Shown one piece after another: positions 11,472-57,601 of a stretch of 64,000 nt of DNA; position 1 is the first letter of the stretch, and every line of letters begins with the position of its first letter. Under the pieces are notes generated by a model, which was not told the DNA's origin, did no database searches, and worked only from the letters and a program-made list of their open reading frames with translations. The translations under genes and the position numbers were made by a program. The DNA comes from Acidobacteriota bacterium (GTDB lineage: Bacteria; Acidobacteriota; UBA6911; RPQK01; JAJDTT01), in NCBI GenBank assembly GCA_965217775.1, contig CBDCJH010000002.1, positions 1 to 64,000 on the forward strand. The letters run 5' to 3'.

Positions 11472-11521
11472 CGCGCCGCCCCATCTTTCGCCGCGCTCTC
11501 GGGACTGAGAGAGAAAAAACC

Positions 11522-15943: not shown

Positions 15944-16340
15944 GGCATAACCTCACGCGGGGCGGATTGGGGAGTCGGTCGACCTGACGGATCGGGGCAT
16001 TGAGGCCTCTGCCCCTGTCGCTATGGGTGGGGATCCTTGTGGTCCATGCCCCACCGCCGCCGAAAATAAACTGAACTCCGGTGATTCCGTGTTCCGCTCA
16101 TGATCCGGTCCCCGGGAGTCGATGTCAACTTCTGAGAAACACGAATTATTTCAAGATAAAGAGAAGAACCGGGAGGAGGAGGCGTCGGGGCGACCCTCGC
16201 GCTGGGTTGTCCAGCTACTTCATAATATTGTCAATGGCCATCGAAAACTGCACGCGTTCAGCCGGGATGCAAGGCCGGTCGAATGCCGTCGTCCTGCGAC
16301 AATGAATGCCGGTGAGGGCAACGAATGGAAGGGAATAGTC

Positions 16341-24095: not shown

Positions 24096-27000
24096 TTACC
24101 GCTGGACCGGCACCACCGGCAGGGTCGTGAAGATCTGGTTGCCGGTGTCCAACTCCACTGCCACTCCAGTGAACATCCCGTCTCCCGCTGCCGTACACCG
24201 GACCGACCCGACGAAGTCGGTCGTGTCCGTCCTCGTGAACACCTCTTCGATGAACCGGGCATTTTGCCCATTGCCGTCGAGACGGATGTCCACCCGCTCC
24301 AGTTCCTCACCCTGGCTCATCAACCGGCACCGCACCAGGGCGCGTTGTGGCTCCAGATTCCGGATGGCCGCCGCCGTGCGGATTCTTCCCGCCTGCCGCC
24401 GGGCTGGGAACAGGGCGTCGGTCAAGGGTTGACTGGCGCCGACCCCGGCCACGCCGACGCCCGGGATGTCAAATCGCAGGACACCGCCGATGGGACTCGT
24501 GGACACGACTTGCACCGAGCCCGTGACGACCTCTCCCCGCCCATGCGTCGAGATCGTCAACTCACCCAGGCGAGCGATCGCGGTTCGGACGGTCAGACTT
24601 CCGTCGCCTCGCACCACCAGATCCTCCCCGATATCCACCATCGATTCCGGGTCCAGAAGATCGCCCGCCCGATCATAGAAGTAGATGGCCGGCCGGGCCG
24701 TTGACGCCGCCACGTTCACCAGCACCAGGTCGGAGGTGATCAAGGTTCCGTCGGCGGAAGTGCCATTGGCGAAGTGCGCGAAAGTCAGGGTCGTTGCTTC
24801 CTGCTCGCCACCCATCGGCTCCACGGGAACCACCGGCAGAGTGGTGAAGATCCGGTTGTCCGAATCCAGCTCCACCGCCACTCCCGTGAACGACTCACCG
24901 GCCGGGACCGTACAACGCACCGACCCCACGAAGTCCGTGGTGTCGGTCTCCGTGAACACTTCCTCGAGGAACTGCGCATCCTGGCCGTTCGCGCTGAGTT
25001 TGATCTCCCCCTCTTCCAGCACCCTGCCGTCCTTCATCAATCGGCACTGCACGTCGACGGCCTCCATCCCCAGGTTGTGGATGGCTGCCGCGGTGCGTAT
25101 CCCTCCGTCCTGCCGCCGGGCCGGGAACAGGGCGTCCGCCGTGGGTTCGCTGGCGCCGACACCGGCGACGCCGATGCCGGGGATGTCGAAGCGGACCACT
25201 CCGCCGACAGGTCCGTCCGAAACCACCCGCACCGATCCCGTCACCACCTCTCCCCGGCCGTGGGTGGAGATCGTCAGCTCGCCCAGCGAAGCGATCTCCG
25301 TCCGGGGCGACAGCCCTCCGTCGTCCCGGATCTCCAGATCGTCTCCGACATCCACCACGGACTCGGCTTCAAACAGATCTCCCTCCCCGTCGAAGAAGTA
25401 GACGGCGGGACGAATCTCCGACTCGGCGACGTTCACCAGCACCAGGTCGGAGGTGATGAGGACATCGTTGCCCGAGACCCCGTTTCCGAAATGGGCGAAC
25501 TCCAGGATCACCTCCTCGGCCATGGGCGTGGTCTCGACCGGGCTGGAGGGAGGACTTGGACCGACCGAATTCACCGCCCGCACCTCGAAAACGTAGGTCC
25601 GGCCGTTGGTCAGTCCAGTGACCGTATGGGTCAGGTCCGTGGAACCGGTGGAGATCCACTCCCCGGCCCGGTCGATCCGGACCTCGTAGCCGGTGAGGGC
25701 GGAGCGGCCGTCGCTCTCGGGGGCCTCCCAGGAGAGAGTCACTTCACCGTCCCCGGATTCTGCCTGCAGGTTCAATGCTGCCGTGGGCACAGTCGCAGCC
25801 GGAGGCGGTGGTGGCGGAGGAGGAGGCGGCGGTGGTGGCGGCGGCGGAGGAGGAGGCGGAGGCGGTGGAGGAGGTGGCGGCGGGGCCGAGACTTCGTTGT
25901 CCTGGACCGTGACCCGGGCGCTCTGAGTCGAAGTGGGTCCCAGCCGGTACTCGGCTCCCGGCTGCAGCCGGGCGGTGACCCGGCTCGTGGATTCGGCGAC
26001 GTCGTCATCGTCGGTCAACACCTCCAGCGTCGCCGTGTCCTGTCCGGACGGGAACTCCACCTCGTCCGGCGGTTCGTACCCGCCCGAGGTCTCGATCATC
26101 GATCCCGACTCCGTGACCTCCAGGCTCACCGTCAGTGAGGCCTCCGTGGGCGGCCCCCGCGTCAGGGTGAACTCTACGGGGTCGCCTTCCGTGACCGTCT
26201 CGGATCCCTGCTTGGCTGCGATGCTCACCAGTGGCGGGTCCGCCCGTTGATCGGTCAACGCCTCCACCGGGTTGCCCACCTCGTCCTGGATCGGGTCGAA
26301 CCCGGGTGTATAGCTCACCCTTACCGTCTCGCCCGCCGCCACCGCTGAGGTCAGCGTCAAGGTGACGCTGTTTCCTCTCACCTGGACCTGGATGACCGTC
26401 CGGTCATTCCCGTCCACCGTCACCGCGAAGTCGGAACTCGCCGGCCGCGATCCCACATCCAGTGGCTCGTCGTAGGTCAGCGACACCCGCGAGCCATGCA
26501 CCGTCACGCCCTCCAGTCCCGGTACGCTCGCGTCCACCTTGTGGTCCGGCTGCGTCTCGACCGCCTCGTAGCTCCGCCCCGCCGGATTGTCCGACAGATC
26601 CAGGATCTTTCCCCCGTTGAGCGCGATACTTCCGCGCGGGACGCTCACGCCGTCCTCGTCTTCGTCCCCCTTCTCCACCGTGTAGACGAACACCACCGCC
26701 GCCCGGGCGGGACCCGTGCCGGCGCTGGCCCGCTTCCTCCGGTTCCCCACCAGCAGGTCCAGCGTCGGTGTCCCCCGCACCGTGTCCACCGTCACCGTCT
26801 CGTCGTAGCGCACCGTCACGGAGATCATGTCGTCGACCGCGTAGGTCTCATCCGTCCCCGGATAGGAGCTGATCTCGATCCCTTCGATCGACGGGGCCGT
26901 CGTGTCCGGCGTCTGGTTGTCTACGAACTCGTCCCTGAAGGCCTCGGCATCGTTGCCGACCCGGTCCTGGATCGGATTCGATCGCGACTCGTAGCTCACC

Positions 27001-30000
27001 CGGATCCCGGTTTCTCCGTACTCCGCTGCTGGACTCACCGTCAGCCGCACCTCACTCCCGGTCACCTGAACCCGGGTCACGGTGCGCATCTCGTTGCCTC
27101 CCTCCACGGTGAAGTCACTCGTCGCCGGCCGGGAGGACGTATTCAGGGGTTCGTTGTAGGTCAGCGTCAGCGTCGCACCGTTGACCACCGCCGGGTCGGT
27201 CGGGGCCAGCGCCGGAGCCACCGCGTCCACCTGGTGGCTCATACTGGCCGCCACTGCGTCGTGATCCAAGGTAGCGTTATTGCCCGCCCCGTCGCGGATC
27301 GTTCCTCCAGACAGGCGGTTCGCCTCGATGCTCACCCCATCCTCGTCGGAATCGTCCGTCACCACGCGGTAGGTGAACTTCATGGCCCGGTTTGAGACGC
27401 TCCGGTACTCCGCCGTCGGATTCCGGCCCCCGACGTTCAGCGTCACTTCGGGCGTTCCCGTCACCACCACCGTCTCGTCAAACGTCACCGTCACTTCAAT
27501 GGTGTCGTCCACGCCGTAGGTCCGATCCGATCCCGCACTCGACGTGATTCGCACCGTTGACACCGTCGGCCCTGTCGTGTCTCCCGTCTTGTTGGAGACG
27601 CTCTTGTTGCTCAACCGGTCCGCGTCGTTGCCGGCCATGTCCTGGATCGGATTCGATCCCAGCTCATAGCCCACCCGGAGGCCACTTTCTCCGTCCGTGA
27701 CTGCTGGGCTCAGCGTCAAGAACACCGCGCTTCCGCTGACCCGGACTCCGGTGACCGTCCGGGTCTCACTCCCTCCGGTCACGCTGAAGTCGTCCGACGC
27801 AGGCTCCGACGACGAATCCAAAGGCTCGCCATAGGCCAGGTTGAGCGTCGTCCCGTTGGCCACCGCCCCGTCGGATGTCGCCAGCGCCGGTTTGATCCCG
27901 TCCACCTGGTGCTGGGAATCGGCCGCCACCGGCGCATGGGTCAGCACCGCGTTGTTCCGGGCTCCGTCACGGATGGTCCCACTGGAGAGACGATTGGCAT
28001 CAATGCTCACCCCGTAGGGGGCCGTGTCGCCCGTAACCACCTGGTACTCGAATCTCACGGCCGCCCCTGTGACGTCTTGGTAGTTGGCCGTCCGGCTCCG
28101 GCCCCCCACGTTCAACGTCAGCCGCGGCGTTCCCGTCACCACCACCGTCTCGTCAAACGTCACCGTCGCTTCGATGGTGTCGCCGGCCGCGTACGTCGAA
28201 TCCGACCCGGCATTGGAGGTGATCTGCACCGTCTCGATCGTCGGACCCGCCGTGTCCCCTGTGTTATTCGTGACCGGTTCGTTGTTCAACGCGTCCGCGG
28301 CGTTGCCCACCTTGTCCCGGATCAGATTCCCACTCGGCACGTAGCTCATCCGGAGGCCGAATTCCGTGTCCTGCACCGCCGGACTCAGGGTCAGGAAAAC
28401 AGCGTTCCCGCTCACCGACACGCTCGTCACCGTTCGCGTCTCACTGCCTCCCGTCACGGTGAAGGCGCTCGCCGCCGGCCGCGAGGAGGACCTCAGCGGC
28501 TCGCTGTAAGCCAGAGTCAGTGTGGTTCCGTTCACGACTGCCCCATCCGTCGTGGCCAGCATCGGAGCCACGCCATCCACCTTGTGCCGCGAGTTGGCTG
28601 CCACTCCCGCGTGGTCTAACGTCGCGTCATTTCGAGCTCCGTCGCGGATCGTCCCCCCAGACAGGCTGTCCGAGTCAATGCTGACCCCGTCCCGGTCCCG
28701 GTCGCCCGAGACCACCTTGTACTCGAATTTGACGGCGGAGCCCGAGACGCTCTCGTACTCCGCCGTTCGGTTCTGTCCGCCCACTTTCAAGGTCAATTCG
28801 GGCGTCCCTGTCACCACCACCGTCTCGTTAAACGTCACCGTCACCTCGATGGCATCGTCCACGGCGTAAGTGGAATCCGATCCCGCAATCGAGGTGATCC
28901 TCAGGGTCTGCACCGCCGGTCCCGTCGTGTCGCCCGTGACGTTGGTGACACTCCGGCTGCTTAACCGGGCCGCATCGTTGCCCGCCGTGTCCTGGATCGG
29001 GGCCGCTCCCGACCCGGTCGGCACCGTGTAGCTCACCCGGAGGCCCGTCTCCCCGTGTTCCACCGCCGAACTCAGCGTCAACTCCACTGCGCTCCCGCTT
29101 ACCCGGACTCCCGTGACCGTCCGCGTCTGGTTGCCCCCCGTCACGGAGAAGGCGTCGGTCCCCGGCTCCGAGGATATGTCCAATGGCTCACTGTAGGCCA
29201 GACTCAGCATGGTTCCGTTGGCAACCGCCCCGTCGGTCGTCGCCAGAGTGGGCTTGATGCCGTCCACCTTCTGCCCAGTGTCGGCCGTCACCGCCGTGTG
29301 GGTCCGGACCGCATTGTTCCTGGCGATGTCCCGGATCGTCCCCCCGGACACGCTGCCCGCCTCGATACTCACCCCGTCCGTGTCGCTGTCGTTGACGTCC
29401 ACCGTGTAGACAAACACGACCTCCGACCCAGTGACGCTCTCGTAGTTCGCCGATCGATCCCGCTCCCCCACCTTCAACGTCACCCGCGGGGTCCCGGACA
29501 CGGTGACGGTCTCGCTGAAGGTCAACTTCACCTCAATCTCGTCGTCGATGCCGTAGACGTCCCGGCTGTCCGGAGGATCCGACGTGATCTCCACCGAGGT
29601 GACCGTCGGTGGAATCCGGTCCGGTGTCTGGTTCGTCACCGGCTGGCTGCCCAGTCCGTCCGCATCGTTACCGACCCGGTCCTGAATCGGCATCGCCTCC
29701 ATCCCGGTCGGGATGATGTAGCTCACCTGGATCCCCGTCTCCCAATGCTCCACCGCCGGGGACAGCGTGAGTCGCACCGTGCTTCCGCTCACCACGGCCC
29801 CGGACACTGTTCGCGATGAAGAGCCTCCGGAAACGAAGAAAGCACCGGGCAGTGGCATCGAAGAGGAGTCCAGAGACTCGGTGTATGTCAGCGTCAGCGT
29901 CGCCCCGTTGACCACGGCGCCGTCGGTCATGACCAACTCCGGCTTGATGCCGTCCACCTTGTGCCGCGATTGGTTCCCCAATGCGCGATGATCCAGGTTG

Positions 30001-33000
30001 GCCTCGTTGTCCGAGCCGTCCTTGATCGTACCGCCATTGAGCGAAAGGCTGTCCGCCTCGATACTCACTCCGTTGGTATCAATGTCGCCGGTCCCGACCC
30101 GATAGTGGAACAGGACGTCCGCATCCGTGACGCTGTCGTAGTCCGCCGTTCGTTCCTGGTCCCCCACCATAAGAGTCAACTGCGGGGTCCCCGTCACCAA
30201 GACATCGTCGCTGAGGGTCACCGTCACCTCGATCAAATCACCGATCGCGTAGGTTGAATCCGATCCTGCGTCCGACGTGATCTCCAGTTGGCTCACCGTT
30301 GCCAGGACCGGAATGTCCACCATCACCCGGGCACTGCGGCTCGATTCGCCGCCATTGATTACGGCCGCTACCTGATAGGTATAGGTGTTGCCGCCGGTCA
30401 CCTCAGAATCGACGTATGAGCGGCTTGCAGTGTTCTCAGAGAGGACCTCACGGGTCGTGCCATCGTCTCGGGTCACGATGTAGGACAAACTTGGCGCCGA
30501 GGTCCATTCACTACTCAGATCCACCGCCGTCCATTCCAATTCCACCTGGTTTTGCCCATCACTCGTTGCCGATCTTGCAGTCAAGGTCGGTCCGGACCGT
30601 AGCTGGTAACCGAACTCCTCCCACGTTGCGTCCCCGTCCCCATCAAAATCCACAACCAGCACCGGATACTCGTCGGTCCCCCCGAAGTCCCATTCGTCAG
30701 CATCCCAATCCGCATAGATGCCGGTGTCGGCGGTGGGCGCCTGGAGCTGCTCGGTGGTCTGGCCGGTCCCGTGGTCTCCGGTCGCCTGCCCCGAGGTTGT
30801 CGTGTCCCAGTAACTGGCTGTGATCGTACTGCTGCCGAGCCCTCCGACCAGCCCGCCGATGCTCGTCTCCCCCGATACCCGGCCCGTGGCGTAACTCGCT
30901 CGGACCGTGTTGCCAGCTTCATACCCAACCAGGCCGCCGACAGACGATCTCCCCGACACGTCGCCCGTGGCGTAACTCGCCTCGATGATGATGCCAAGAT
31001 TCCACCCGACCAAGCCGCCGACAGACGAACTTCCCGACACCTTGGCGGCCGCATAGCTGGTCCGGACACTTTTGTAGTTAGACCCGACCAAGCCGCCGGT
31101 ATTGCCTAAGCCTGACACTTGGCCCGTGACGTAGCATGCCGTGATGGTGCCCAGATTAGTCCCGATCAGGCCGCCGACGTGCGTTCTTGCTGCCACATCG
31201 ACCTGGATCAGCCCGACGTGACGGATCTCGGCCACCCAGTCGGTATATCCAAACAACCCGGCATAGTTCGTCGAGGACCGATCAATGAACAGGTTGCGAA
31301 TGGTGTGGCCATTACCCTCGAACGTTGTCAGAAAATCAGATCCGCTCCTCCCAATGGGGTTCCATCCGGCGCCGTTGTTCCAGTAGGCGTCGTCTGAGTC
31401 GACATCTCCATCGCCGTCAGTGTCGAAGTCGAGATCCGCCATCAGCTCATAGCCACGACACTCAAGGACGCAACGGAGTTGTGAGTCCGCTTCCGGATAC
31501 GCGTCGGGAAACGCCGCGCGATAGGCACTCGCCCCGCCGGCCGTGGGGACGCCGTCGCCGTTTCGATCATGACGGACCGCGTCGAGTTGGGCGAGCGTCG
31601 TGATCTCGATGAGCCCATCGCCGTCGGTGTCGTAGTGCCGCTCCTTTGTCACATTCGTCACTTCGTGTCTGCGCAAGCTTGCCGCTGGGTTGCCCGCGAG
31701 ATCCCGGATGAGGTGGGGCGTGCCAAAAACCGAAATATTTGAAAATTTCACCGTCACCACCTCGCCCGCCAAGACCGGATCCCACAGCGTCACCGTCATG
31801 ACCGATCCGTCCACCACCACGTTAGGCACATATCTGCCACTCTCGGGGTGGTTGACCGCCACGGTGAAAAACGCTGAGGCCCGGGGCGCCGGCTGGGCCA
31901 ACGGCTCGTCGTAGGTCAGCGTCAGTATCGTTTCATCCACTACGGCCATCTGCAGCACCGGCTTGACGCCGTCCACACGGTGGTTCGCGTCGGAGGCGAG
32001 CGCACTGTGCGTCCGGCTCGCGTTCCGATTGGCGCTGTCCCGGATCGTGCCGCCGTTGAGCGACAGCGCGTTCTCGGCAATGCTCACCCCATCCGTATCG
32101 GTTTCGTCGGTGGCCACCTCGTAGGAAAACGTCACGGCATTGCGCGCCACTCCTTGATACGACGCCTGGCGCGTGTTGCTCTCCACCATCAGCCCGAGTT
32201 GCGGCGACCCCGTCACAATGACCGTCTTGTCAAAGCGCACCGTGGCTTCGATCTCCTCGCCCACCGCATATCCACCGCCAGGGTCCGAGGTCAGCGACAC
32301 GCTCAGGACGCTCGGGGCGCCGGTCACGGTATCGTTGTCGGTCAGCATGACCGTGGCGGTGGCCGGGCTGCCTGCACTCACGCCGCCGGGCAGCAGATAG
32401 CCCAGGGTCAGGGTCACGGTCTCATCGTCATCGTCCACGGCATCGTCGACGGCCGTGACGGTGAAGGTCTTTTCGGTCTCGTTCGCAGCGAAGGACACGC
32501 TGGCCGGTACGGTGTAGTCGGACGCTGCGGCGCCGGTGGTACTCGTTGCCGTGACCGGAATGTCAATCGCGCGGCTGGGCTCGTCGCTCACGCGGACCGT
32601 CACGGTCGCCGTGATTCCACCCTCGGTTGCGGTGTATGTCTCGGCATCAAAGGACACCGTGATCGCCGGCGCGCTCCGGTAGTTCGCCACGTAGCCGCGC
32701 GTCCGGTTGAGCATTCGCACCGCATCGGACGGACCGTCGGCGCCCGGTGACGGATCGAGGCCGGCCTTGCCCAGGGGGTCGCCGCCGGGATCGGGATAGA
32801 TCTGATCCGGATTCGAGAAGCGGAGAATTTGCGAGCATCGGCCGCACTGGTTGGGGTACGCCATGATGGTACGCCAGAAGGCGGTGTCGGGTGCGCCCGG
32901 CTCCAGCGCCTCCTGGTTGACGTAGCCAAAGGCGTATGGAAACCGCGTGAAACCGCCGCAGTTGCTGCCGCAGACCTGGTACCGGTCATGGCGGACACCC

Positions 33001-33956
33001 ATGATGTGGCCCAGTTCGTGCGCGAATGTAGGGGCGGAGTAAGCATTGACCGCGCCAAAGGCAGAAGATTCGGAGCTTGTTGACGGGACATTTAGCTGGT
33101 ACGCGCGGCCTGATTGCCCGGCGGCTATCAGCAGTACGATGTCCGCGGCAACCTCATCGCGAATGTCGTGGATCTCGTCCATATATCCATCCGACGTCGA
33201 GCGCAGACGACCGACATCTATGGCCAAATCGTTGGTCTCCCTGTATCCCACCACTTCCTCGGCCGCTACCAAGTTGATGCGCTGATTCGCGCCGCTGTTG
33301 CTGTAGGCCATGTTGGTCTCCGCGACCATGAGGTCGATCGCGGTCGCGATCGCGTCAGTCCCACCCACGTTCTCCCGGGCAGCCGACGTGTAAAAGACCG
33401 CCACGTCAATCACCGACTGCTCGGCCGACGGACAGATCAGGCCGCTGAAGGTGATTGTGGACAGCCACGTTTGAAAGGTGTCATCCCCCGGCGCGCAGAG
33501 TTCGGTCTTCTCGATGTTCACGGTCTCCAGGTCGGACAGCTCGCGCAGACCGTCAGGAAGTGATCCGGTCAATGCCCGGCTCTCGCTGAGGAGCAGGGAC
33601 GTGAGATTGGTCAGGTTGGCCAACTCCGACGGGAGGGCGCCGCTGAGAGCGTTGTCTTGCAAATCCAACTGTTCGAGCTCGCTCAGGTCGCCCAACGCCG
33701 TCGGTAGCGTCCCGTCCAAACCATTGCCGTTCAGCACCAGGGCCGTGACGCGCCCGTCACTGTTGGTGGTCACGCCGGACCATGAAGACAGCGGCTCCGT
33801 GCTCGTCCAGTTGGTATTGGTCGTCCAGTTCGCACCGTCCGTGGCGTTGTAGAGCGCGGTCAGAGCAGCCTTGTCGGTGGCGACGGAGTTCTGGGCATGG
33901 ACGTGGCCTGCCACACCGAAGGGGAGCACGAAAAGGAGAACTCGAAAGAGGCGCAT
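24096..33956 (-). CDS. Giant secreted protein 1: LRR + reprolysin-like (metzincin) protease + Calx-beta + GLUG + 7 Ig/SwmB-like repeat pairs + poly-Pro + FN3 + tandem conserved C-terminal domains
   Basis: Signal peptide MRLFRVLLFVLPFGVAGHVHA; LRR (LxxLxLxxNxLxG); HELGHIMGVRHD zinc motif near 32985-33020 with Met-turn TIMAY; VGGLVG repeats; start chosen at ATG 33956 within ORF ending at 34115. Confidence 0.88.
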   Translation of the reverse strand: MRLFRVLLFVLPFGVAGHVHAQNSVATDKAALTALYNATDGANWTTNTNWTSTEPLSSWSGVTTNSDGRVTALVLNGNGLDGTLPTALGDLSELEQLDLQDNALSGALPSELANLTNLTSLLLSESRALTGSLPDGLRELSDLETVNIEKTELCAPGDDTFQTWLSTITFSGLICPSAEQSVIDVAVFYTSAARENVGGTDAIATAIDLMVAETNMAYSNSGANQRINLVAAEEVVGYRETNDLAIDVGRLRSTSDGYMDEIHDIRDEVAADIVLLIAAGQSGRAYQLNVPSTSSESSAFGAVNAYSAPTFAHELGHIMGVRHDRYQVCGSNCGGFTRFPYAFGYVNQEALEPGAPDTAFWRTIMAYPNQCGRCSQILRFSNPDQIYPDPGGDPLGKAGLDPSPGADGPSDAVRMLNRTRGYVANYRSAPAITVSFDAETYTATEGGITATVTVRVSDEPSRAIDIPVTATSTTGAAASDYTVPASVSFAANETEKTFTVTAVDDAVDDDDETVTLTLGYLLPGGVSAGSPATATVMLTDNDTVTGAPSVLSVSLTSDPGGGYAVGEEIEATVRFDKTVIVTGSPQLGLMVESNTRQASYQGVARNAVTFSYEVATDETDTDGVSIAENALSLNGGTIRDSANRNASRTHSALASDANHRVDGVKPVLQMAVVDETILTLTYDEPLAQPAPRASAFFTVAVNHPESGRYVPNVVVDGSVMTVTLWDPVLAGEVVTVKFSNISVFGTPHLIRDLAGNPAASLRRHEVTNVTKERHYDTDGDGLIEITTLAQLDAVRHDRNGDGVPTAGGASAYRAAFPDAYPEADSQLRCVLECRGYELMADLDFDTDGDGDVDSDDAYWNNGAGWNPIGRSGSDFLTTFEGNGHTIRNLFIDRSSTNYAGLFGYTDWVAEIRHVGLIQVDVAARTHVGGLIGTNLGTITACYVTGQVSGLGNTGGLVGSNYKSVRTSYAAAKVSGSSSVGGLVGWNLGIIIEASYATGDVSGRSSVGGLVGYEAGNTVRASYATGRVSGETSIGGLVGGLGSSTITASYWDTTTSGQATGDHGTGQTTEQLQAPTADTGIYADWDADEWDFGGTDEYPVLVVDFDGDGDATWEEFGYQLRSGPTLTARSATSDGQNQVELEWTAVDLSSEWTSAPSLSYIVTRDDGTTREVLSENTASRSYVDSEVTGGNTYTYQVAAVINGGESSRSARVMVDIPVLATVSQLEITSDAGSDSTYAIGDLIEVTVTLSDDVLVTGTPQLTLMVGDQERTADYDSVTDADVLFHYRVGTGDIDTNGVSIEADSLSLNGGTIKDGSDNEANLDHRALGNQSRHKVDGIKPELVMTDGAVVNGATLTLTYTESLDSSSMPLPGAFFVSGGSSSRTVSGAVVSGSTVRLTLSPAVEHWETGIQVSYIIPTGMEAMPIQDRVGNDADGLGSQPVTNQTPDRIPPTVTSVEITSDPPDSRDVYGIDDEIEVKLTFSETVTVSGTPRVTLKVGERDRSANYESVTGSEVVFVYTVDVNDSDTDGVSIEAGSVSGGTIRDIARNNAVRTHTAVTADTGQKVDGIKPTLATTDGAVANGTMLSLAYSEPLDISSEPGTDAFSVTGGNQTRTVTGVRVSGSAVELTLSSAVEHGETGLRVSYTVPTGSGAAPIQDTAGNDAARLSSRSVTNVTGDTTGPAVQTLRITSIAGSDSTYAVDDAIEVTVTFNETVVVTGTPELTLKVGGQNRTAEYESVSGSAVKFEYKVVSGDRDRDGVSIDSDSLSGGTIRDGARNDATLDHAGVAANSRHKVDGVAPMLATTDGAVVNGTTLTLAYSEPLRSSSRPAASAFTVTGGSETRTVTSVSVSGNAVFLTLSPAVQDTEFGLRMSYVPSGNLIRDKVGNAADALNNEPVTNNTGDTAGPTIETVQITSNAGSDSTYAAGDTIEATVTFDETVVVTGTPRLTLNVGGRSRTANYQDVTGAAVRFEYQVVTGDTAPYGVSIDANRLSSGTIRDGARNNAVLTHAPVAADSQHQVDGIKPALATSDGAVANGTTLNLAYGEPLDSSSEPASDDFSVTGGSETRTVTGVRVSGSAVFLTLSPAVTDGESGLRVGYELGSNPIQDMAGNDADRLSNKSVSNKTGDTTGPTVSTVRITSSAGSDRTYGVDDTIEVTVTFDETVVVTGTPEVTLNVGGRNPTAEYRSVSNRAMKFTYRVVTDDSDEDGVSIEANRLSGGTIRDGAGNNATLDHDAVAASMSHQVDAVAPALAPTDPAVVNGATLTLTYNEPLNTSSRPATSDFTVEGGNEMRTVTRVQVTGSEVRLTVSPAAEYGETGIRVSYESRSNPIQDRVGNDAEAFRDEFVDNQTPDTTAPSIEGIEISSYPGTDETYAVDDMISVTVRYDETVTVDTVRGTPTLDLLVGNRRKRASAGTGPARAAVVFVYTVEKGDEDEDGVSVPRGSIALNGGKILDLSDNPAGRSYEAVETQPDHKVDASVPGLEGVTVHGSRVSLTYDEPLDVGSRPASSDFAVTVDGNDRTVIQVQVRGNSVTLTLTSAVAAGETVRVSYTPGFDPIQDEVGNPVEALTDQRADPPLVSIAAKQGSETVTEGDPVEFTLTRGPPTEASLTVSLEVTESGSMIETSGGYEPPDEVEFPSGQDTATLEVLTDDDDVAESTSRVTARLQPGAEYRLGPTSTQSARVTVQDNEVSAPPPPPPPPPPPPPPPPPPPPPPPPPPPPAATVPTAALNLQAESGDGEVTLSWEAPESDGRSALTGYEVRIDRAGEWISTGSTDLTHTVTGLTNGRTYVFEVRAVNSVGPSPPSSPVETTPMAEEVILEFAHFGNGVSGNDVLITSDLVLVNVAESEIRPAVYFFDGEGDLFEAESVVDVGDDLEIRDDGGLSPRTEIASLGELTISTHGRGEVVTGSVRVVSDGPVGGVVRFDIPGIGVAGVGASEPTADALFPARRQDGGIRTAAAIHNLGMEAVDVQCRLMKDGRVLEEGEIKLSANGQDAQFLEEVFTETDTTDFVGSVRCTVPAGESFTGVAVELDSDNRIFTTLPVVPVEPMGGEQEATTLTFAHFANGTSADGTLITSDLVLVNVAASTARPAIYFYDRAGDLLDPESMVDIGEDLVVRGDGSLTVRTAIARLGELTISTHGRGEVVTGSVQVVSTSPIGGVLRFDIPGVGVAGVGASQPLTDALFPARRQAGRIRTAAAIRNLEPQRALVRCRLMSQGEELERVDIRLDGNGQNARFIEEVFTRTDTTDFVGSVRCTAAGDGMFTGVAVELDTGNQIFTTLPVVPVQR
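25800..25883 (-). repeat. Poly-proline tract (28 Pro, mixed CCN codons)
   Basis: Counted directly from the sequence. Confidence 0.95.
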
Positions 33957-33996
33957 GAAGTTTGCAAGCGCGATCAGCCCTCCGGCCACCGCGTCC

Positions 33997-34596
33997 TCAG
34001 GGCACGTCGCCGGTTCCGGAATCGGGCTCCACCACGTCACATTCGAGCGGCGGCTCCTCGACCTCGCTGATGGCGTAAAGTCCGCCGCCCACCGATCGAA
34101 TCCGGTATGTGCCACCCAGCGTCCTCACCGTGCCAGCGACCGTCTCGCCGTTGACGACGAGGGTCAGCGTGCCCACCGGCTCACCCACCACCCGGCCGGA
34201 GATCGAATAACCGCCCGAAAACGTCGGCGCGGTCCGTTCGACGATCCCGGTGAACACGATGTCCTCGAACAGATTCAGAGTCAGGGTTCCATCCTTTCCG
34301 GGCTCCACATCACGCTGGGGACGACGCGGGGACACAGTCTTGGTGTGAACACGGGAGTGGGGGAAAACGGAGGCGGCTGCCCGGGCGCGCTGCAGCCGTT
34401 CCAAGTCCATCGTCACCAACCGACGGCGGACCGTTATGGCATCGAGCGCGGCCGGCACAGGCGAATCCAGCTGCGCCTCCACAGGATCGATGGGGGAAAA
34501 GAGGCCGTCGCGCTGGGCCGCGACGGCTGGGGCGGGCGACCAGACCAGCCATAGGACAGAGACTGCTGTGACATACTGCGCACTTGGCCACGACAT
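33997..34596 (-). CDS. Stand-alone secreted propeptide-like protein of reprolysin-type proteases (copy 1)
   Basis: AAGGAGG RBS, signal peptide ending AVAA-Q, LTLNLFEDIVFTGIVERTAPTFSGGYSISGR..TYRIR; C-terminal PPLEC Cys; no zinc motif. Confidence 0.7.
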   Translation of the reverse strand: MSWPSAQYVTAVSVLWLVWSPAPAVAAQRDGLFSPIDPVEAQLDSPVPAALDAITVRRRLVTMDLERLQRARAAASVFPHSRVHTKTVSPRRPQRDVEPGKDGTLTLNLFEDIVFTGIVERTAPTFSGGYSISGRVVGEPVGTLTLVVNGETVAGTVRTLGGTYRIRSVGGGLYAISEVEEPPLECDVVEPDSGTGDVP

Positions 34597-35100: not shown

Positions 35101-38100
35101 TTACCGCTGAACCGGCACCACCGGCAGGGTCGTGAAGATCTGGTTGCCGGTGTCCAGCTCCACCGCCACTCCGGTGAACATCCCGTCTCCAACTGCCGTA
35201 CACCGGACCGACCCGACGAAGTCGGTCGTGTCCGTCCTCGTGAACACCTCTTCGATGAACCGGGCATTTTGCCCATTGCCGTCGAGACGTATGTCCACCT
35301 GCTCCAGCTCCTCACCCTGGCTCATCAACCGGCACCGCACCAGGGTCCGCTGTGGCTCCAGATTCCGGATGGCCGCCGCCGTGCGGATTCTTCCCGCCTG
35401 CCGCCGGGCTGGGAACAGGGCGTCGGTCAAGGGTTGACTGGCGCCGACCCCGGCCACGCCGACGCCCGGGATGTCAAATCGCAGGACACCGCCGATGGGA
35501 CCCGTGGACACGACTTGCACCGAGCCCGTGACGACCTCTCCCCGCCCATGCGTCGAGATCGTCAACTCACCCAGGCGAGCGATCGCGGTTCGGACGGTCA
35601 GACTTCCGTCGCCTCGCACCACCAGATCCTCCCCGACATCCACCATCGATTCCGGGTCCAGAAGATCGCCCGCCCGATCATAGAAGTAGATGGCCGGCCG
35701 GGCCGTTGACGCCGCCACGTTCACCAGCACCAGGTCGGAGGTGATCAAGGTTCCGTCGGCGGAAGTGCCATTGGCGAAGTGCGCGAAAGTCAGGGTCGTT
35801 GCTTCCTGCTCGCCACCCATCGGCTCCACGGGAACCACCGGCAGAGTGGTGAAGATCCGGTTGTCCGAATCCAGCTCCACCGCCACTCCCGTGAACGACT
35901 CACCGGCCGGGACCGTACAACGCACCGACCCCACGAAGTCCGTGGTGTCGGTCTCCGTGAACACTTCCTCGAGGAACTGCGCATCCTGGCCGTTCGCGCT
36001 GAGTTTGATCTCCCCCTCTTCCAGCACCCTGCCGTCCTTCATCAATCGGCACTGCACGTCGACGGCCTCCATTCCCAGGTTGTGGATGGCCGCCGCGGTG
36101 CGGATCCCGCCCTCCTGCCGCCGGGCCGGGAACAGGGCGTCCGCCGTGGGTTCGCTGGCGCCGACTCCGGCCACCCCGATCCCGGGGATGTCGAAGCGGA
36201 CCACTCCGCCGATGGGGCCGTCCGACACGACCCGGACCGACCCCGTCACCACCTCTCCCCGGCCGTGGGTCGAGATCGTCAGCTCGCCCAGCGACGCGAC
36301 CTCTGTCCGGGGCGACAGCCCTCCGTCGTCCCGGATCTCCAGATCGTCTCCGACATCCACCACGGACTCGGCTTCAAACAGATCTCCCTCCCCGTCGAAG
36401 AAGTAGACGGCGGGACGAATCTCCGACTCGGCGACGTTCACCAGCACCAGGTCGGAGGTGATGAGGACATCGTTGCCCGAGACCCCGTTTCCGAAATGGG
36501 CGAACTCCAGGATCACCTCCTCGGCCATGGGCGTGGTCTCGACCGGGCTGGAGGGAGGACTTGGACCGACCGAATTCACCGCCCGCACCTCGAAAACGTA
36601 GGTCCGGCCGTTGGTCAGTCCAGTGACCGTATGGGTCAGGTCCGTGGAACCGGTGGAGATCCACTCCCCGGCCCGGTCGATCCGGACCTCGTAGCCGGTG
36701 AGGGCGGAGCGGCCGTCGCTCTCGGGGGCCTCCCAGGAGAGAGTCACTTCACGGTCCCCGGATTCTGCCTGCAGGTTCAATGCTGCCGTGGGCACAGTCG
36801 CAGCCGGCGGCGGTGGTGGCGGAGGCGGCGGCGGCGGTGGTGGCGGAGGCGGAGGAGGAGGAGGCGGAGGAGGAGGAGGCGGAGGGGGAGGAGGAGGTGG
36901 CGGCGGGGCCGAGACTTCGTTGTCCTGGACCGTGACCCGGGCGCTCTGAGTCGAAGTGGGTCCCAGCCGGTACTCGGCTCCCGGCTGCAGCCGGGCGGTG
37001 ACCCGGCTGGTGGATTCGGCGACGTCGTCATCGTCGGTCAACACCTCCAACGTCGCCGTGTCCTGTCCGCCCTGGAACCGAACCTCCTTCGGCGGATCGT
37101 ACCCGCCCGAGGTCTCGATCATCGATCTCGTCTCCGTGACCTCCAGGCTCACCGTCAGCGAGGCCTCCGTCGGGGGTCCCCGCGTCAGCGTGAACTCCAC
37201 GGTCTCGCCTTCCGTCACCGTCTCCGATCCTTGCTTGGCCTGGATGGTGACCAGCGGCGGGTCCGCCCGTTGATCGGTCAACGCGTCCACGGCGTTGCCC
37301 ACCTCGTCCTGGATCGGGTTGAATCCCGGCGTGTAGCTGACCATTACGGTTTCGCCCGCTGTCACCGTTGAGGCCAACGCCAAGATGACACTGTTTCCGC
37401 TCACCCTAACCTGGACCACCGTTCGATCGTTTCCCGCCACCGTGACCGCGAAGTCAGAACTCGCTGGCGTCGAGCTATCATCCAACGGCTCGTCATAGTT
37501 GAGGGCAACCTGCAAGCCATGTACCGCCACGCTCTCCAGATCCGGCTCGCTCGTGTCCACCTTGTGGTCCGGCTTCGTCTCCACCGCCTCGTAGCTCCGC
37601 CCCGCCGGGTTGTCCGCCAGATCCAGGATCTTCCCCCCGTTGAGCGCGATGCTTCCCCGCGGAACGCTCACTCCGTCGTTGTCCTCGTCTCCCTTCTCCA
37701 CCGTGTAGACGAATACCACTGCGGCCCGGGCGGAACCCGTGCTGGCACTCGCCCGCTTCCGCCGGGCCCCCACCAGCAGGTCCAGCGTCGGCGTCCCCCG
37801 CACCGTGTCCAGCGTCACCGTCTCGTCGTACCGCACTGTCACCGAGATCATGTCTCCAATGGCGTACGTCTCGTCCGTCCCCGGGTCCGAGCTGATCTCG
37901 ATCGCTTCGATCGATGGGGCCGTCGTGTCCGGCGTCTGGTTGTCGACGAACTCGTCCCTGAAGGCTTCGGCATCGTTTCCGATCGCATCCTGAATCGGAT
38001 TCGATCGCGACTCGTAGCTCACCCGGATGCCTGTCTCTCCGTGCTCCGTTGACGGACTAACCGTCAGCCGAACCGTGCTCCCGGTCACCTGAACCCGAGT

Positions 38101-41100
38101 CACGGTGCGCGTCTCGTTGCCTCCCGCCACGGTGAAGTCGCTGGTCGCCGGCCGCGAAGAGGTGTTGAGCGTTTCGTTGTAGGTCAGCGTCAGCGTCGCG
38201 CCGTTGACCACCGCCGGATCGGTCATTGCCAGGACCGGGGCTACCGCGTCTACCTTGTGGCTCGAATTGTCCGCCACGGGGTCGTGGTCCAGCATGGCGT
38301 CATTGCCCGCGCCGTCGCGAATCGTTCCTCCGCCTCGCGACAGCTGGTTCGCCTCGATGCTCACCCCGTCCTCGTCGTTGTCGCCCGTGACCACCTGATA
38401 GGCGAACTTCACCGCCCGGCTCGAGACGCTTTTGTACTCCGCCATTCGGTTGCGGCCGCCCAGGTTCAACGTCAATTCGGGCGTTCCGGTGATCACCACC
38501 GTTTCGTCGAACGTCACCGTCACCTCGATGGTCTCGTCCACGCCGTAGGTCCGATCCGACCCCGCACTGGAGGTGATCCGAACCGTCGACACGGTCGGCC
38601 CCGTCGTGTCTCCCGTCTTGTTCGTGACGCTCTTGTTGCTCAACTGGTCCGCGTCGTTGCCGGCCGTGTCCTGAATCGGACTCGGCCCCGGCTGATAGTT
38701 CACCCGAAGGCCGCTCTCTCCGTTCGTAACTGCTGGGCTCAGCGTCAGGAACACCGCGCTTCCGCTGACCCGGACTCCGGTGACCGTCCGCGTCTCACTC
38801 CCTCCCGTCACGGTGAAGTCGTCCGCCGACGGGACCGAAGAGGAATCCAGCGGCTCGCCGTAGGCCAGCGTCAGCGTCGTGCCGCTGGCCACCGCCCCGT
38901 CGGACGTTGCCAGCGCCGGCTTGATGCCATCCACCTTGTGCTGGGAATCGGCCGCCACCGGCGCGTGGTTCAGCACGGCGTTATTCTGTGCGCCGTCGCG
39001 GATCGTCCCGCCGGACAAACGGTTCGCCTCGATACTCACTCCGTAGGCGGCGCTGTCGCCCGAGACCACCTTGTATTCGAACCTCACGGCTCCGCCTGTG
39101 ACGTTTCGATAGTTCGCCGTTCGACTCCGGCCGCCCAGGTTCAACGTCAGCCGGGGTGTCCCTGTCACCAGGACGGTTTCGTTGAACGTGACCGTCACTT
39201 CGATCGTCTCGCCGGCCGCATAGGTCGTATCCGGCCCCGCATTCGAGGTGATCCTCATCGTTTCCACAATTGGCCCCGTTGTATCTCCCGTGTGGTTGGT
39301 GACGCTCTGATTGCTCAGAGCGTCTGCGGCATTGCCCACCACGTCCCGGATTGGATTCCCTCCCGGCTGATAGCTCAACAGGAGACCGCTCTCTCCGTCT
39401 TGCACTGGGTGACTGAGCGTCAAGAAAACACCGCTCCCGCTCACCTGGACCCGGGTGGCCGTTCGTGCCTCGTTCCCTCCGGTCAAAGTGAAAGCGCTCG
39501 TTGCCGGCCTTGATGATGAGTTCAACGGCTCGCTGTAGGCCAGCGTCAGCGTCGTCCCGTTCACAACTGCCCCGTCGGTGGCCGCGAGACTGGGCTTGAC
39601 CCCATCCACCATGTGCCGCGAATTGGCCGCCACCGCTGCGTGGTCCAGGACCGCGTTATTCTGGGCACCGTCTCGGATCGTCCCGCCGCCTCCAGACAGA
39701 TGGCTCGACTCGATGCTCACCCCATCGTCGTCGCTGTCCCCCGCAACTACCCGGTAGGCGAATTTCATCGCCTTGCTCATGACGCCTTGGAAGTTCGCTG
39801 TTCGGCTCCGGCCGCCCAGGTTCAACGTCAAACGTGGAGTCCCCGTCACCACCACCGTTTCGCTGAACGTCACCGTCACTTCGATGGTGTCGTCCACACC
39901 GTAGGTCCGGTCCGATCCCGCACTGGAGGTGATCCGAACCGTCGACACGGTCGGCCCCGTCGTGTCCCCCGTCTTGTTCGTGACGCTCCGATTGCCCAAT
40001 CGGTCCGCATCGTTGCCGGCCGTGTCCTGAATCGGGTTCGAACCGGGCTGGTAGTTCACCCGCAGGCTGCTCTCTCCTTCCGTTACTGCCGCACTCAGGG
40101 TCAGAAAGACGGCGCTTCCGCTCACTCGGACTCCAGTGACCGTCCGCGTTTCACTCCCGCCCGTCACCGTGAAGTCATCCGGCGACGGTACCGAAGAGGA
40201 GTCCAGTGGCTCGCCGTAGGCCAGCGTCAGCATCGTCCCGTTGGCGATCGCCCCTTCGGTGGTCGCCAGGACGGGTTTGATCCCATCCACCTTGTGCTGG
40301 GCGTGTGCCGCCACCGCTACGTGGTCCAGGACCGCGTTATTCTGGGCACCGTCTCGGATCGTGCCCCCGGACAGGCGATTCGCCTCGATACTCACCCCGT
40401 ATGTGGCACTGTCACCCGAGACCACCTTGTATCTGAACCTCACGGCACCGCCCGTGACGTTCAGGTAGTTCGCCGTGCGGCTCCGGCCGCCCAAGTTCAA
40501 CGTCAGCCGCGGTGTCCCTGTCACTACGACGGTCTCGCTAAACGTGACCGTTGCCTCGATCGTCTCGCCGGCCGCGTAGGTCATATCCGACCCCGCATTC
40601 GAGGTGATCCGCATCGCCGCCACCACCGGTCCCATCGTGTCTCCCGTGTGGTTCGCAACACTCTGATTGTTCAGAGCATCTGCGGCATTGCCCACCATGT
40701 CCCGGATCGGATTCCCTCCCGGCTGATAGCTCAACTCGAAACCGCTCTCTCCATCTTGCACTGGGGGACTCAACGTCAGTAAAATAGCGCTCCCGCTCAC
40801 CTGGACCCGGGTGACCGTTCGGGCCTCATTTCCTCCCGTCACGTTGAAGGCGCTCGTTGCCGGTCTTGACGACGAGTTCAACGGTTCACTGTAGGCCAGC
40901 GTCAACGTCGTCCCATTCACAACTGCCCCGTCGGTAGCTGCCAAGCTGGGCTTGACCCCATCCACCGTGTGCCGTGAATCGGGCGCCACCGCCGCGTGAT
41001 CCAGCGTGGCGTCATTCCGCGCACCGTCTCGGATCATCCCGGTCCCTAACGACAGACGGCTCGACTCGATGCTCACGCCATCCTCATCGCTGTCCCCGGA

Positions 41101-56987: not shown

Positions 56988-57016
56988 ATGCGATCAGCCC
57001 TCCGGCTGCCGCGTCC

Positions 57017-57601
57017 TCAGGGCTCGGCGCCGGTCTCGGATTGGGGCCCCTCCACCTCACATTTGAACGGCGTCTCCTCGACCTCGCTGATAGCGCACTG
57101 CCCCCGGCCGACGGACCGGATGCGGTAGGTTCCGCCGAGCGTCCGCACCGTGCCGGCGACCGTCTCGCCGTTGACGACAATCGTCAGCGTGCCCAGCGGT
57201 TCGCCAGCGAGGCGGCCCGAGATCGAGTAGCCGCCGGAAAAGGTCGGCGCTGTCCACTCCGCGATCCCTGTGAACACGACGTCCTCGAACAGGTTCACGA
57301 TCAGGGTTGCATCCGCTGCAGGCGCCGCGTCACGATTGCCGCTGGAAGGGGAGACCGCTTTGGTGCTAACGAAGGGGCGGGGGAGCACATCTGCGGCCGC
57401 CCTAGCTCGGTGGAGCTGTTCCAGGTCAATCGTCACCAACCGGTGACGTACTATTGTGGCATCGTGGGAGGTAAGCACGGGGGAATCCAAGTGCTCTGCT
57501 GGTCGATTGACCGTGGAAAAGAGACCGTCGCGCTGGACCCCAATCGCAGGAGGCACCAGCCCCATCACGCCGATGACCGAAACTGCTATTGTCCATGCCA
57601 T
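57017..57601 (-). CDS. Stand-alone secreted propeptide-like protein (copy 2)
   Basis: AGGAG RBS before ATG 57601; signal peptide; clear homolog of 33997-34596 (QRDGLFS, NLFEDVVFTGI, TAPTFSGGYSISGR, PFKC). Confidence 0.7.
   Translation of the reverse strand: MAWTIAVSVIGVMGLVPPAIGVQRDGLFSTVNRPAEHLDSPVLTSHDATIVRHRLVTIDLEQLHRARAAADVLPRPFVSTKAVSPSSGNRDAAPAADATLIVNLFEDVVFTGIAEWTAPTFSGGYSISGRLAGEPLGTLTIVVNGETVAGTVRTLGGTYRIRSVGRGQCAISEVEETPFKCEVEGPQSETGAEP

Follow-up and report, generated by a model that had tools for sequence, protein, structure and literature searches.

Each of the two giant metzincin genes found in the window (the whole 64-kb stretch of DNA analysed here) is preceded by a small gene, and this small gene probably encodes a prodomain-like chaperone or latency factor that would act in trans on the adjacent M12B protease, as CpaB does for CpaA. 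Metzincin latency is usually described as a mechanism based on cis prodomains; to our knowledge, CpaB–CpaA is the only example in trans to have been studied, and CpaB is regarded there as a chaperone for secretion that is particular to Acinetobacter. The arrangement that we describe resembles this chaperone–protease pair and is widespread but unannotated.

The two small genes, small1 and small2, are the only copies in the window and stand ahead of both of its metzincin giants (Table 1). A third giant gene between giant1 and giant2 (48183..35101) has neither a protease domain nor a small gene ahead of it. As the earlier note had claimed from the letters alone, the small genes are intact open reading frames of 194–199 aa with a ribosome-binding site (GGAGG at 34609-34605, 8 nt upstream of the ATG, for small1 and AAGGAG upstream of the ATG for small2), a hydrophobic, signal-like N-terminal segment and a Cys near the end. 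The C-terminus of small1 reads ...EEPPLEC(186)DVVEPDSGTGDVP and that of small2 ...EETPFKC(181)EVEGPQSETGAEP. Giant1 starts 40 nt past the small1 stop, in a different frame, and giant2 29 nt past the small2 stop; the position of giant1's ATG reads ACG in giant2. Giant1 has an SD-like GGAGG about 20 nt ahead of its ATG, a greater distance than is normal for a ribosome-binding site. The terminator scan revealed none between small1 and giant1 or between small2 and giant2, the single terminator-like hairpin being inside the small1 coding region and within chance expectation, and the promoter scan gave nothing convincing for small1. Genes of a type II secretion system (T2SS) were not found within the 64-kb window.

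Table 1. Positions of the small genes, the giant genes and their principal features in the window.
Feature	Position	Strand	Remarks
small1	33997..34596	minus	199 aa, ATG start, TGA stop; stand-alone prodomain-like protein
small1 tail residues 181-190 (EPPLECDVVE)	34027..34056	minus	predicted in the protease active-site cleft (co-fold)
small1 Cys186 codon TGT	34041-34039	minus	
small2	57017..57601	minus	194 aa, ATG start, TGA stop; second copy
small2 Cys181 codon	57061-57059	minus	
giant1	24096..33956	minus	3286 aa; signal peptide, LRR, M12B catalytic domain, Calx-beta, GLUG, SWM repeats, fn3
giant1 catalytic domain (aa 175-429)	32670..33434	minus	
giant1 zinc motif HELGHIMGVRHD (aa 313)	33020-32985	minus	
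giant2	48405..56987	minus	2860 aa, architecture as giant1, TTG start
giant2 catalytic domain	55659..56453	minus	
giant2 zinc motif HEVGHNMGLGHD (aa 325)	56015-55980	minus	

With respect to the giants, Pfam and motif analysis bear out the earlier description of a signal peptide, an LRR and a catalytic domain that lacks a prodomain: the LRR (residues ~70-150) is followed by Reprolysin_3/4/5 (~180-380), then by Calx-beta, GLUG, seven copies of SWM_repeat and fn3, and Pfam detected no prodomain in either protein. Both giants exceed the Pfam gathering scores for Reprolysin_5, _4 and _3, and the motif quoted in the earlier note is present as SVIDVAVFYT in giant1 and as SVIDMAVFYT in giant2. The extended zinc motif HExxHxxGxxHD is present in both, as it is in the partners scanned at 10 loci. 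The Met downstream of it (RTIMAY and YTIMSY in the giants) can be assigned by its position to the Met-turn; M191 and Y193 are invariant in an alignment of 12 sequences. Moreover, when the PDB was searched with a profile of the catalytic domain, ADAMTS-5 and snake-venom metalloproteinases were matched with E values from 6e-5 to 9e-3. Judging by these sequences, the giants are metzincins of the adamalysin/reprolysin type (MEROPS M12B).

By tblastn, small1 and small2 share 62% identity, and they are under purifying selection (dN/dS 0.30 for the whole and 0.23 for the core, with a dS of 0.76), in agreement with the retained propeptide that the earlier note envisaged. Because of this dN/dS and because the pair recurs in other genomes, the association of small gene and protease gene is not due to chance. 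Family databases have little to say about the small proteins: NCBIfam gave zero matches for small1 and small2, Pfam at E up to 10 gave zero families for these two and for the relatives P0127 and P0160 (the Pep_M12B_propep model of ADAM/reprolysin propeptides being unmatched as well), and the relative P0131 hit Big_3_5 alone (E 0.081). A sequence-profile search of the PDB with 61 family members (E up to 10) found neither CpaB nor ADAM prodomains; its sole match, PsaN (E 0.39), is an unrelated chain and a chance hit. The ESM Atlas matches of the small protein are clusters of the “hypothetical protein” kind, together with one cluster of which 40% of the members carry BamI_lipocalin.

The small protein belongs to a large family of 1113 cluster representatives. 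Among the best 150 of these, the stand-alone form is the commonest (85), so that the split arrangement is not the local oddity it had been taken for; in 30 others the domain immediately precedes a metzincin motif, and in 8 it is C-terminal to such a motif. Of the 257 relatives that were pooled, 95 have the domain immediately before HExxHxxGxxH on its N-terminal side, and in the nearest fused relatives (P0005 and P0007) a signal peptide, the small-protein domain and some 40 aa precede the catalytic domain. The resemblance to the N-terminal region of bacterial reprolysin-like proteins, which the earlier note suggested, is thus real, and the sequence comparisons identify the small protein as a homolog of the pre-catalytic region of the fused proteases. 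The N-terminal segment of the small gene even doubles as the secretion signal of these fused proteins, with AxA-like sites. There are also 22 genuine cases in which the domain follows the catalytic domain on its C-terminal side. It is therefore a movable partner module rather than a propeptide confined to the N-terminus; such a position is a poor fit to the classical N-terminal propeptide.

The gene pair is conserved well beyond the window, at genome loci that span the Acidobacteriota, the Binatia and the Gammaproteobacteria. In 10 of 13 such loci the next gene downstream, 19-32 nt off or overlapping, encodes a Reprolysin-domain protein with its own signal peptide. At locus L011 a remnant of the catalytic domain is left after a deletion, and at L013 the small gene precedes a giant without a catalytic domain. 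In the earlier note the splitting of an ancestral gene was put down to an LRR cassette that brought its own start; this we can reject, since single-chain proteins with the order domain–LRR–catalytic domain are common (20, e.g. P0016), and since the split pair at L012 and, likewise, the remnant at L011 have no LRR. The tree of the domain, furthermore, shows at least 7 changes between the split and the fused state. Searches of the literature for a separately encoded metzincin prodomain, or for LRR-reprolysin proteins of Acidobacteria or symbionts, gave nothing relevant among the matches listed, and one for CpaB together with fragilysin found nothing.

The AF2 model of small1 (mean pLDDT 84.8) has a helix at 7-18 in the signal-like N-terminus, a strand (54-63), a helix (65-77), a beta-sandwich (104-180) and a flexible tail (181-199). 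Foldseek against the PDB places chains G-N of 6o38 first (E 4e-4, TM 0.67 on the target), the top ones (H, G, M, N, K and L) having E values from 4e-4 to 7e-3 with probability 1.00; from their length (117-130 aa) and the identity of the entry, these chains are presumably CpaB. According to PMC7542363, 6O38 is the CpaA–CpaB complex. The next matches are entries for the zymogen and the prodomain of ADAM17 (E values from 8e-3 to 5e-2), in line with the earlier suggestion that the small protein is prodomain-like, and these are followed by unrelated lipocalin/FABP structures (E ~0.1 or above). The TM-scores on the query are modest for these matches (0.41 or below). The model of the fused relative P0027 (pLDDT 83.6, with a low-confidence tail from residue 167 on) finds the CpaA catalytic chain 6o38_A as its best match (E 4e-12) and aligns with the zymogens of ADAM17 and profragilysin-3 over 350-480 columns, a length that covers both prodomain and catalytic domain. 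The fold comparisons thus indicate that small1, as modelled, is similar to CpaB and to the ADAM17 prodomain.

To these models we can add co-folds of the giant1 catalytic domain, Zn and small1 residues 30-199. The ipSAE was 0.83 (0.85, 0.83 and 0.83 in three runs) versus 0.02 for the best control, with at least 81% of the contacts common to the runs and a partner pLDDT of at least 74. Of 157 solved complexes 116 come up to the mark used, as against 2 of 215 mismatched pairs, although pairs that are like solved complexes (here the ADAM17 zymogen and CpaAB) can pass through memorization by the model. The predicted interface brings small1 residues 181-190 to H139, E140, H143, H149 and the Met-turn region of the protease, so that the Cys-bearing tail is predicted to lie against the zinc-site histidines. 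The small protein would, on this evidence, bind the protease with its tail in the cleft. The earlier note had wondered whether the Cys reaches the zinc: the model does put the Cys-bearing tail at the zinc site, and the contact itself stays a prediction. The classical cysteine switch depends on coordination of the catalytic zinc by a Cys of the prodomain, and Cys186 may be the corresponding zinc-blocking residue. A Cys is found anywhere in the 32-residue tail window past the last strand in 59 of 95 stand-alone relatives and is absent from the other 36; at L005 and L006 an Asp occupies exactly the position of the Cys in the window copies. The motif PPxG[E/D/H]P follows the last strand in 43 of 69 direct N-fusions.

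CpaB is encoded next to cpaA, is needed for the stability and secretion of CpaA and blocks its catalytic site with a C-terminal tail in a manner “similar to zymogens”, as PMC7542363 has it; cpaB is located downstream of cpaA and its product is membrane-anchored by TM 7-26 (PMC4713064, which cites Lif and LipB alongside CpaB). The window resembles this system in having a small protein encoded beside an adamalysin-like metzincin, in the fold matches of small1 to CpaB and of P0027 to the CpaA catalytic chain and in the tail-in-cleft arrangement, here predicted by co-fold. However, sequence similarity to CpaB was undetected in the PDB profile search (E up to 10), the small gene lies upstream of the giant and its tail has a conserved Cys. 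Whereas CpaB is anchored and works with a type II secretion system, the N-terminus here resembles the cleavable signal of the fused proteases, and the partners are LRR- and SWM-repeat giants of 2860-3286 aa from uncultured Acidobacteriota-like bacteria.

The cis prodomains of the ADAM/adamalysin (M12B) enzymes, such as that of ADAM17 (PDB 9O54, 8SNM, 9Q7Y), share the fold of small1, a similarity at the level of fold only, and the fused P0027 aligns with the ADAM17 zymogen over 400-480 columns. Like them, the domain is directly N-terminal to the catalytic domain in the 95 fused relatives and has a Cys near its end. Unlike them, the small protein has its own gene, its relatives can carry the domain C-terminal to the catalytic domain and the M12B propeptide model, with the rest of Pfam, fails to match it. 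Profragilysin-3, the Bacteroides fragilis toxin zymogen (PDB 3P24/7PND), is likewise bacterial and has a prodomain, rich in beta structure, at the N-terminus of an adamalysin-like catalytic domain, and P0027 aligns with it over ~360-380 columns (E 3.5e-7, TM 0.47-0.52 on the target); its prodomain is in cis, however, and it is not among the matches listed for small1 alone. Spi (for SpeB) and the propeptide-like I9/I29 inhibitors are separately encoded propeptide-like protease inhibitors. These, and the lipase-specific foldases, are similar in that a prodomain-like or folding partner comes from its own gene beside the enzyme, but they involve other protease classes and folds without homology to our proteins. 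A search of the literature for Spi/SpeB gave nothing relevant among the matches listed.

We therefore propose, as the most probable scheme, that the prodomain of each adamalysin-type (M12B) protease is made from the neighboring small gene, as a polypeptide in its own right that is exported by Sec, and that the small gene is co-transcribed just upstream of the protease gene. After export, presumably with cleavage of the N-terminal signal, the beta-sandwich core of the small protein would dock on two elements of the catalytic domain, its first long helix and its upper-rim strand, while the flexible C-terminal tail of small1 (EEPPLEC-DV) would thread the active-site cleft, Cys186 being the candidate zinc blocker that might ligate the metal. 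The small protein could then assist folding, as a chaperone, and/or act as an inhibitor that holds the giant protease latent until it is dissociated or degraded. It would thereby take the part that the cis prodomain has in ADAMs, and that CpaB has in trans for the CpaA of Acinetobacter.

Other explanations of the gene pair deserve consideration. The small protein could be solely a self-protection (immunity-type) inhibitor in the periplasm or membrane, comparable to Inh for the serralysins and dispensable for folding and secretion. The predicted position of the tail in the active-site cleft would suit such a role, the weak co-divergence described below fits a generic inhibitor and the N-terminal hydrophobic segment, a helix in the AF2 model, could be an uncleaved anchor like that of CpaB (PMC4713064). 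Nevertheless we think it unlikely, given that the domain is homologous to cis prodomains, which must travel with the protease, that the same segment is the secretion signal of the fused proteases and that CpaB, its relative in fold, is described in PMC7542363 as needed for stability and secretion. An inhibitor of this type overlaps with the trans-acting prodomain proposed above, the sole difference being whether the protease needs the small protein in order to fold. It is still less probable, and in our opinion quite improbable, that the small protein is a separately made accessory module for substrate binding or adhesion, neither inhibitor nor chaperone. Such a module might well occur on either side of the catalytic domain, as this one does, and in a few relatives it is joined to other proteins (P0003 with Spondin_N, the S8-like P0004 and P0010). 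P0003, together with P0006, looks however like an over-extended ORF call in which an internal start and signal are kept, the fold matches prodomains and CpaB and no known binding modules, the co-fold sets the tail over the zinc site and the partner in most of the loci is a Reprolysin-domain gene.

To the idea that the small genes are decaying 5' fragments of protease genes (by nonsense mutation, frameshift or assembly error), or the first part of a product that is fused by readthrough or frameshifting, we attach hardly any credence. Fused single-chain relatives do exist, the gap between the genes is short and the SD-like GGAGG is poorly placed for giant1, all of which could be read in its favor. 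Against it stand the purifying selection at an appreciable dS, the clustering of stand-alone tails at 24-35 residues past the last strand and the fact that the domain ORF stops at the same place, 0-16 aa past the domain, in 13 of 13 loci by means of TGA, TAA and TAG alike. The downstream genes, moreover, open with a signal peptide of their own that a fused product would carry in its interior, and the frame offsets of the two window copies are unequal (40 versus 29 nt). We accordingly reject recoding or readthrough to one fused product, in view of the frames, the variety of stop codons and the internal signal peptide.

Returning to the trans-encoded prodomain, its consequences would extend beyond the window. 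If it is correct, CpaB–CpaA would belong to a large family, of whose 1113 cluster representatives the nearest are mostly stand-alone, the prodomain would have moved repeatedly between cis and trans within it, a common “hypothetical protein” encoded beside giant surface proteases, in Acidobacteriota and in further uncultured bacteria, could be named, and there would be natural protein inhibitors for adamalysin-type enzymes. The range from cis to trans would then allow one to study, on examples provided by nature, which properties enable a prodomain to fold its protease and keep it silent. A bolder version, which we rate as somewhat short of an even bet, is that this is an unannotated and widespread family of adamalysin-type prodomains, found interchangeably in cis at the N-terminus, in cis at the C-terminus and, most often, as an exported protein that stands alone and whose gene lies just upstream of that for the protease, with CpaB as a divergent member. 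“Type II secretion protease chaperones” would then be united with metzincin prodomains, and zymogen latency by means of a Cys or Asp/Glu tail switch would be routinely delivered in trans in environmental bacteria.

Cognate specificity between small proteins and proteases had been expected in the earlier note; the mirror-tree analysis of small proteins against catalytic domains lends this little weight (Mantel r 0.33, not significant, with 307 of 5000 permutations as high). Giant1 and its counterpart at L009 have catalytic domains that are 86% identical, and the small proteins beside them are 59% identical. Small genes and protease genes thus appear, from such sequence comparisons, to be shuffled among paralogues, raising the possibility that one small protein might serve several giant proteases per cell.

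The two giant genes of the window that encode M12B-type (adamalysin/reprolysin) proteases, giant1 and giant2, each lie directly behind a small gene (small1 and small2, respectively), and it is most likely that these small genes encode a prodomain acting in trans on the protease of the adjacent giant. The ATG start of each small gene is 8 nt behind GGAGG or AAGGAG, both proteins open with a hydrophobic signal-like stretch, and they end in ...EEPPLECDVVEPDSGTGDVP (small1) and ...EETPFKCEVEGPQSETGAEP (small2); a tblastn search of the window with small1 detected no further copies. The two giants have a common Pfam layout: LRR (~70-150), Reprolysin_3/4/5 (~180-380), Calx-beta, GLUG, seven SWM repeats and fn3, with no prodomain separating signal peptide from LRR. 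Their catalytic domains bear HELGHIMGVRHD and HEVGHNMGLGHD and a candidate Met-turn (TIMAY/TIMSY), and the catalytic-domain profile matches ADAMTS-5 and snake-venom metalloproteinases in the PDB. The earlier note's observation of two giants without a prodomain of their own, each behind an intact small gene, is thus borne out in every detail. Moreover, the dN/dS between the two small genes is 0.30 (0.23 in the folded core) at a dS of 0.76, which is not near 1 and confirms that they are under selection; judged from these rates, the pair is an old duplication of a functioning module and not debris. The corresponding dN/dS for giant1 against giant2 is 0.31 (first 450 codons).

Coordinates of the genes and regions discussed (window unless a locus is named)
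Feature	Coordinates	Strand	Remarks
small2	57601..57017	minus	194 aa; first in the gene order of the cluster
giant2	56987..48405	minus	TTG start, 29 nt past small2 stop
middle giant	48183..35101	minus	no protease domain
small1	34596..33997	minus	199 aa; 500-nt gap after middle giant
giant1	33956..24096	minus	ATG start, 40 nt past small1 stop, different frame
giant start-codon regions	56960-56990; 33950-33970	minus	giant2; giant1
N-terminus of middle giant	47800-48183	minus	...RRSHGVDGTGVGIGVLSTGV...
shared giant C-termini	24096-25300; 35101-36300; 48405-49600		giant1; middle giant; giant2
transposase genes or fragments	20652-21812; 58548-59691	minus	DUF772, DDE_Tnp_1_6
flank gene	1192-2103	minus	one of the genes in the flanks
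large flank ORFs	7052-9727; 9729-11816; 16122-18584		no Pfam match
L011, downstream remnant	6519-6878		132 aa, internally deleted
L002, IS (DDE) transposase	6861-8711		inserted after small gene
L013, downstream giant	6339-12257		no catalytic domain
L008, in-frame fusion	5029-6600		prodomain-like domain, no signal peptide

No Pfam or NCBIfam model matches the small protein, even at E up to 10. In an exhaustive HMMER search, 1113 cluster representatives reach E ≤ 1e-3, and 42 of them reach E ≤ 1e-30. Among the best 150 of these representatives, 85 are stand-alone proteins of 300 aa or less (73 start with M and have at least 150 aa), 30 carry the domain directly N-terminal to HExxHxxGxxH, eight carry it C-terminal to this motif, four have it as the C-terminal end of a longer protein that lacks the motif, and 23 are fragments or other forms. 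The suggested match to the N-terminal region of fused reprolysin-like proteases holds for 30 of the best 150. The nearest fused relatives, P0005 (61% identity) and P0007 (56%), consist of a signal peptide, the small-protein domain, ~40 residues and the catalytic domain (ETVIDVAVFYTP), without LRR; the P0016 type, also with a signal peptide in front, has a linker and an LRR between the two domains in a single chain. When a word-index search was limited to longer proteins, 120 matches came up, most with Reprolysin domains. In a third architecture the domain is placed after the catalytic domain, and 22 of 24 C-terminal-domain proteins have no signal-like hydrophobic stretch before it, which by this sequence criterion makes them true fusions; the exceptions, P0013 and P0209, seem to be merged ORF calls. 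The stand-alone proteins among the best 150 end at a median of 28 residues (IQR 24-35) past the last strand, which speaks for genuine stops rather than chance truncation where contigs end.

A genome scan gave 13 loci (L001-L013), in Acidobacteriota MAGs (Versatilivoraceae, Terriglobia, Bryobacterales), one Binatia MAG and gammaproteobacterial Azotimanducaceae. In all 13 the domain ORF stops (TGA, TAA or TAG) 0-16 residues past the match, and in ten an intact Reprolysin-domain gene is immediately downstream. Eight of these downstream genes (L001, L003-L007, L009 and L010) have their own signal peptide, Reprolysin and a Pfam LRR; that of L008 has a signal peptide and Reprolysin with no LRR match at E ≤ 1e-4, and in L012 the catalytic domain comes straight after the signal peptide, without LRR. 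L007, L001 and L002 are tandem loci of one genome, like the window arrangement. L011, whose remnant retains the signal peptide, the catalytic-domain start and the C-terminal end, L002 and L013 are three decayed or rearranged forms of the module. In L008 and in P0004 the prodomain-like domain has lost its signal peptide and continues in frame from the C-terminus of a protein encoded upstream, which in P0004 is S8-like; the fused domain still lies just upstream of a Reprolysin giant.

The proposal that an LRR cassette split an ancestral gene fails: single chains with the order domain, LRR, catalytic domain are common (20 in the tree set), and there are split pairs without LRR (L012, L011). LRR and splitting are correlated only in the clade to which the window pairs belong; the nearest fused relatives of that clade, P0005 and P0007, have no LRR. 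A FastTree phylogeny built from 244 rows of the core domain is poorly resolved; 22 switches between the stand-alone and fused states are needed on it, at least seven of them forced by well-supported branches alone, so that fission and fusion have recurred in the family.

The AlphaFold2 model of small1 (61-sequence alignment, mean pLDDT 84.8) comprises a strand (54-63) and a helix (65-77), then a linker modelled at low confidence and a beta-sandwich of seven strands (104-180), and its tail is flexible. Foldseek puts six small chains of entry 6o38 at the top of the PDB matches (E 4e-4 to 7e-3, probability 1.00; TM 0.67 on target, with query-normalised scores modest at 0.41 or below), followed by ADAM17, both as zymogen and as isolated prodomain (E 8e-3 to 5e-2); matches to lipocalin/FABP proteins, which are unrelated, start at E ~0.1 with low probability. 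As an independent check, the model of a natural fused relative, P0027 (pLDDT 83.6), has the CpaA chain as best PDB match (E 4e-12, rmsd 3.3 Å over 248 columns) and aligns with zymogen ADAM17 and profragilysin-3 over 350-480 columns, which covers both prodomain and catalytic domain.

We have also co-folded small1 residues 30-199 (61-row alignment) with the giant1 catalytic domain (12-row alignment) and a zinc ion, obtaining ipSAE values of 0.85, 0.83 and 0.83 against 0.02 for the best control, with at least 81% of contacts common to the runs and a partner pLDDT of at least 74. The mark used is met by 116 of 157 solved complexes and two of 215 mismatched pairs, and is a rough guide here, with custom alignments and a ligand included. 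Since likeness to solved complexes can by itself yield a passing score, the prediction supports binding and is not a demonstration of it. In the confident part of the predicted interface, the beta-sandwich sits against the first long helix of the catalytic domain, and tail residues 181-190 (EPPLECDVVE) sit against the upper-rim strand, H139, E140, H143, H149 and the Met-turn region. Past the last strand, the relatives show one of two patterns. With the first, EEPPL-x-C-[EDQG]-V, a Cys is present in 59 of the 95 stand-alone proteins, 14 of the 69 direct N-terminal fusions and one of the 21 LRR-type fusions; the second, LPPxG[E/D/H]P, occurs in 43 of the 69 direct N-terminal fusions, 16 of the 21 LRR-type fusions and 11 of the 24 C-terminal forms. 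L005 and L006 have PPLVDDV where the window copies have PPLECDV. Metzincin zymogens use both Cys and Asp switches, and a position that is Cys in some members and acidic in others is what we would expect of a zinc-blocking site. The small protein would thus be exported apart from the giant, dock on its catalytic domain with the tail lying across the zinc site, and help the protease to fold, keep it latent, or do both.

Among known systems, CpaB-CpaA of Acinetobacter comes closest. Entry 6O38 is described as the complex of CpaB with CpaA, a secreted adamalysin-like protease whose stability and secretion need CpaB (PMC7542363); cpaB is reported to adjoin cpaA, 22 bp downstream, and CpaB to be membrane-anchored (PMC4713064). 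The window pairs differ in that the small gene is upstream, the anchor is replaced by a probable cleavable signal, the tail carries a Cys and the partners are giant LRR- and SWM-repeat proteins. No sequence-level link to CpaB or ADAM prodomains was found (Pfam at E up to 10; PDB profile), and the pairs are best filed as very divergent members of the CpaB-CpaA kind. Several results run counter to the main reading: the lack of such a sequence-level link, the modest query-normalised TM-scores, the pairing of the small gene with a protease-less giant in L013, and the weak co-divergence of small proteins and catalytic domains across 12 pairs (Mantel r 0.33, 307 of 5000 permutations as high). The catalytic domains of giant1 and L009 share 86% identity and their small proteins 59%; the nearest relative of small1 (L004, 72%) has a partner catalytic domain 58% identical. 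The modules thus recombine, and nothing here points to strict cognate specificity. The literature searches turned up no account of such a family; its scale and its repeated shifts among cis-N, cis-C and trans may be new.

The start codons of the two giants differ. The giant2 TTG aligns with the ATG at which the L003 and L010 homologues start (MQDFRW...); the equivalent giant1 codon, likewise TTG, has lost its frame through a 1-nt deletion, so that translation has to begin at an ATG four codons downstream, where giant2 has ACG. The signal-like N-terminus of giant2 (LPNFTYLQRVLLFVLPLGVADHVHAQ) is weaker. The C-terminal 400 aa of giant1 and the middle giant are 98% identical (each ~85% to giant2), which suggests recent gene conversion or partial duplication among neighbouring giants. 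The N-terminus of the middle giant resembles that of P0004, annotated Peptidase_S8; since Pfam detects no S8 domain in the window protein, this N-terminus may be a subtilase-like head that has degenerated. Transposase genes or fragments border the three-giant cluster on both sides. The flanks have the look of ordinary chromosome and encode an ARPP-1 domain protein, an epimerase, a creatininase, a Na/H exchanger with TrkA domains and a mandelate racemase-like enzyme, along with several large ORFs.
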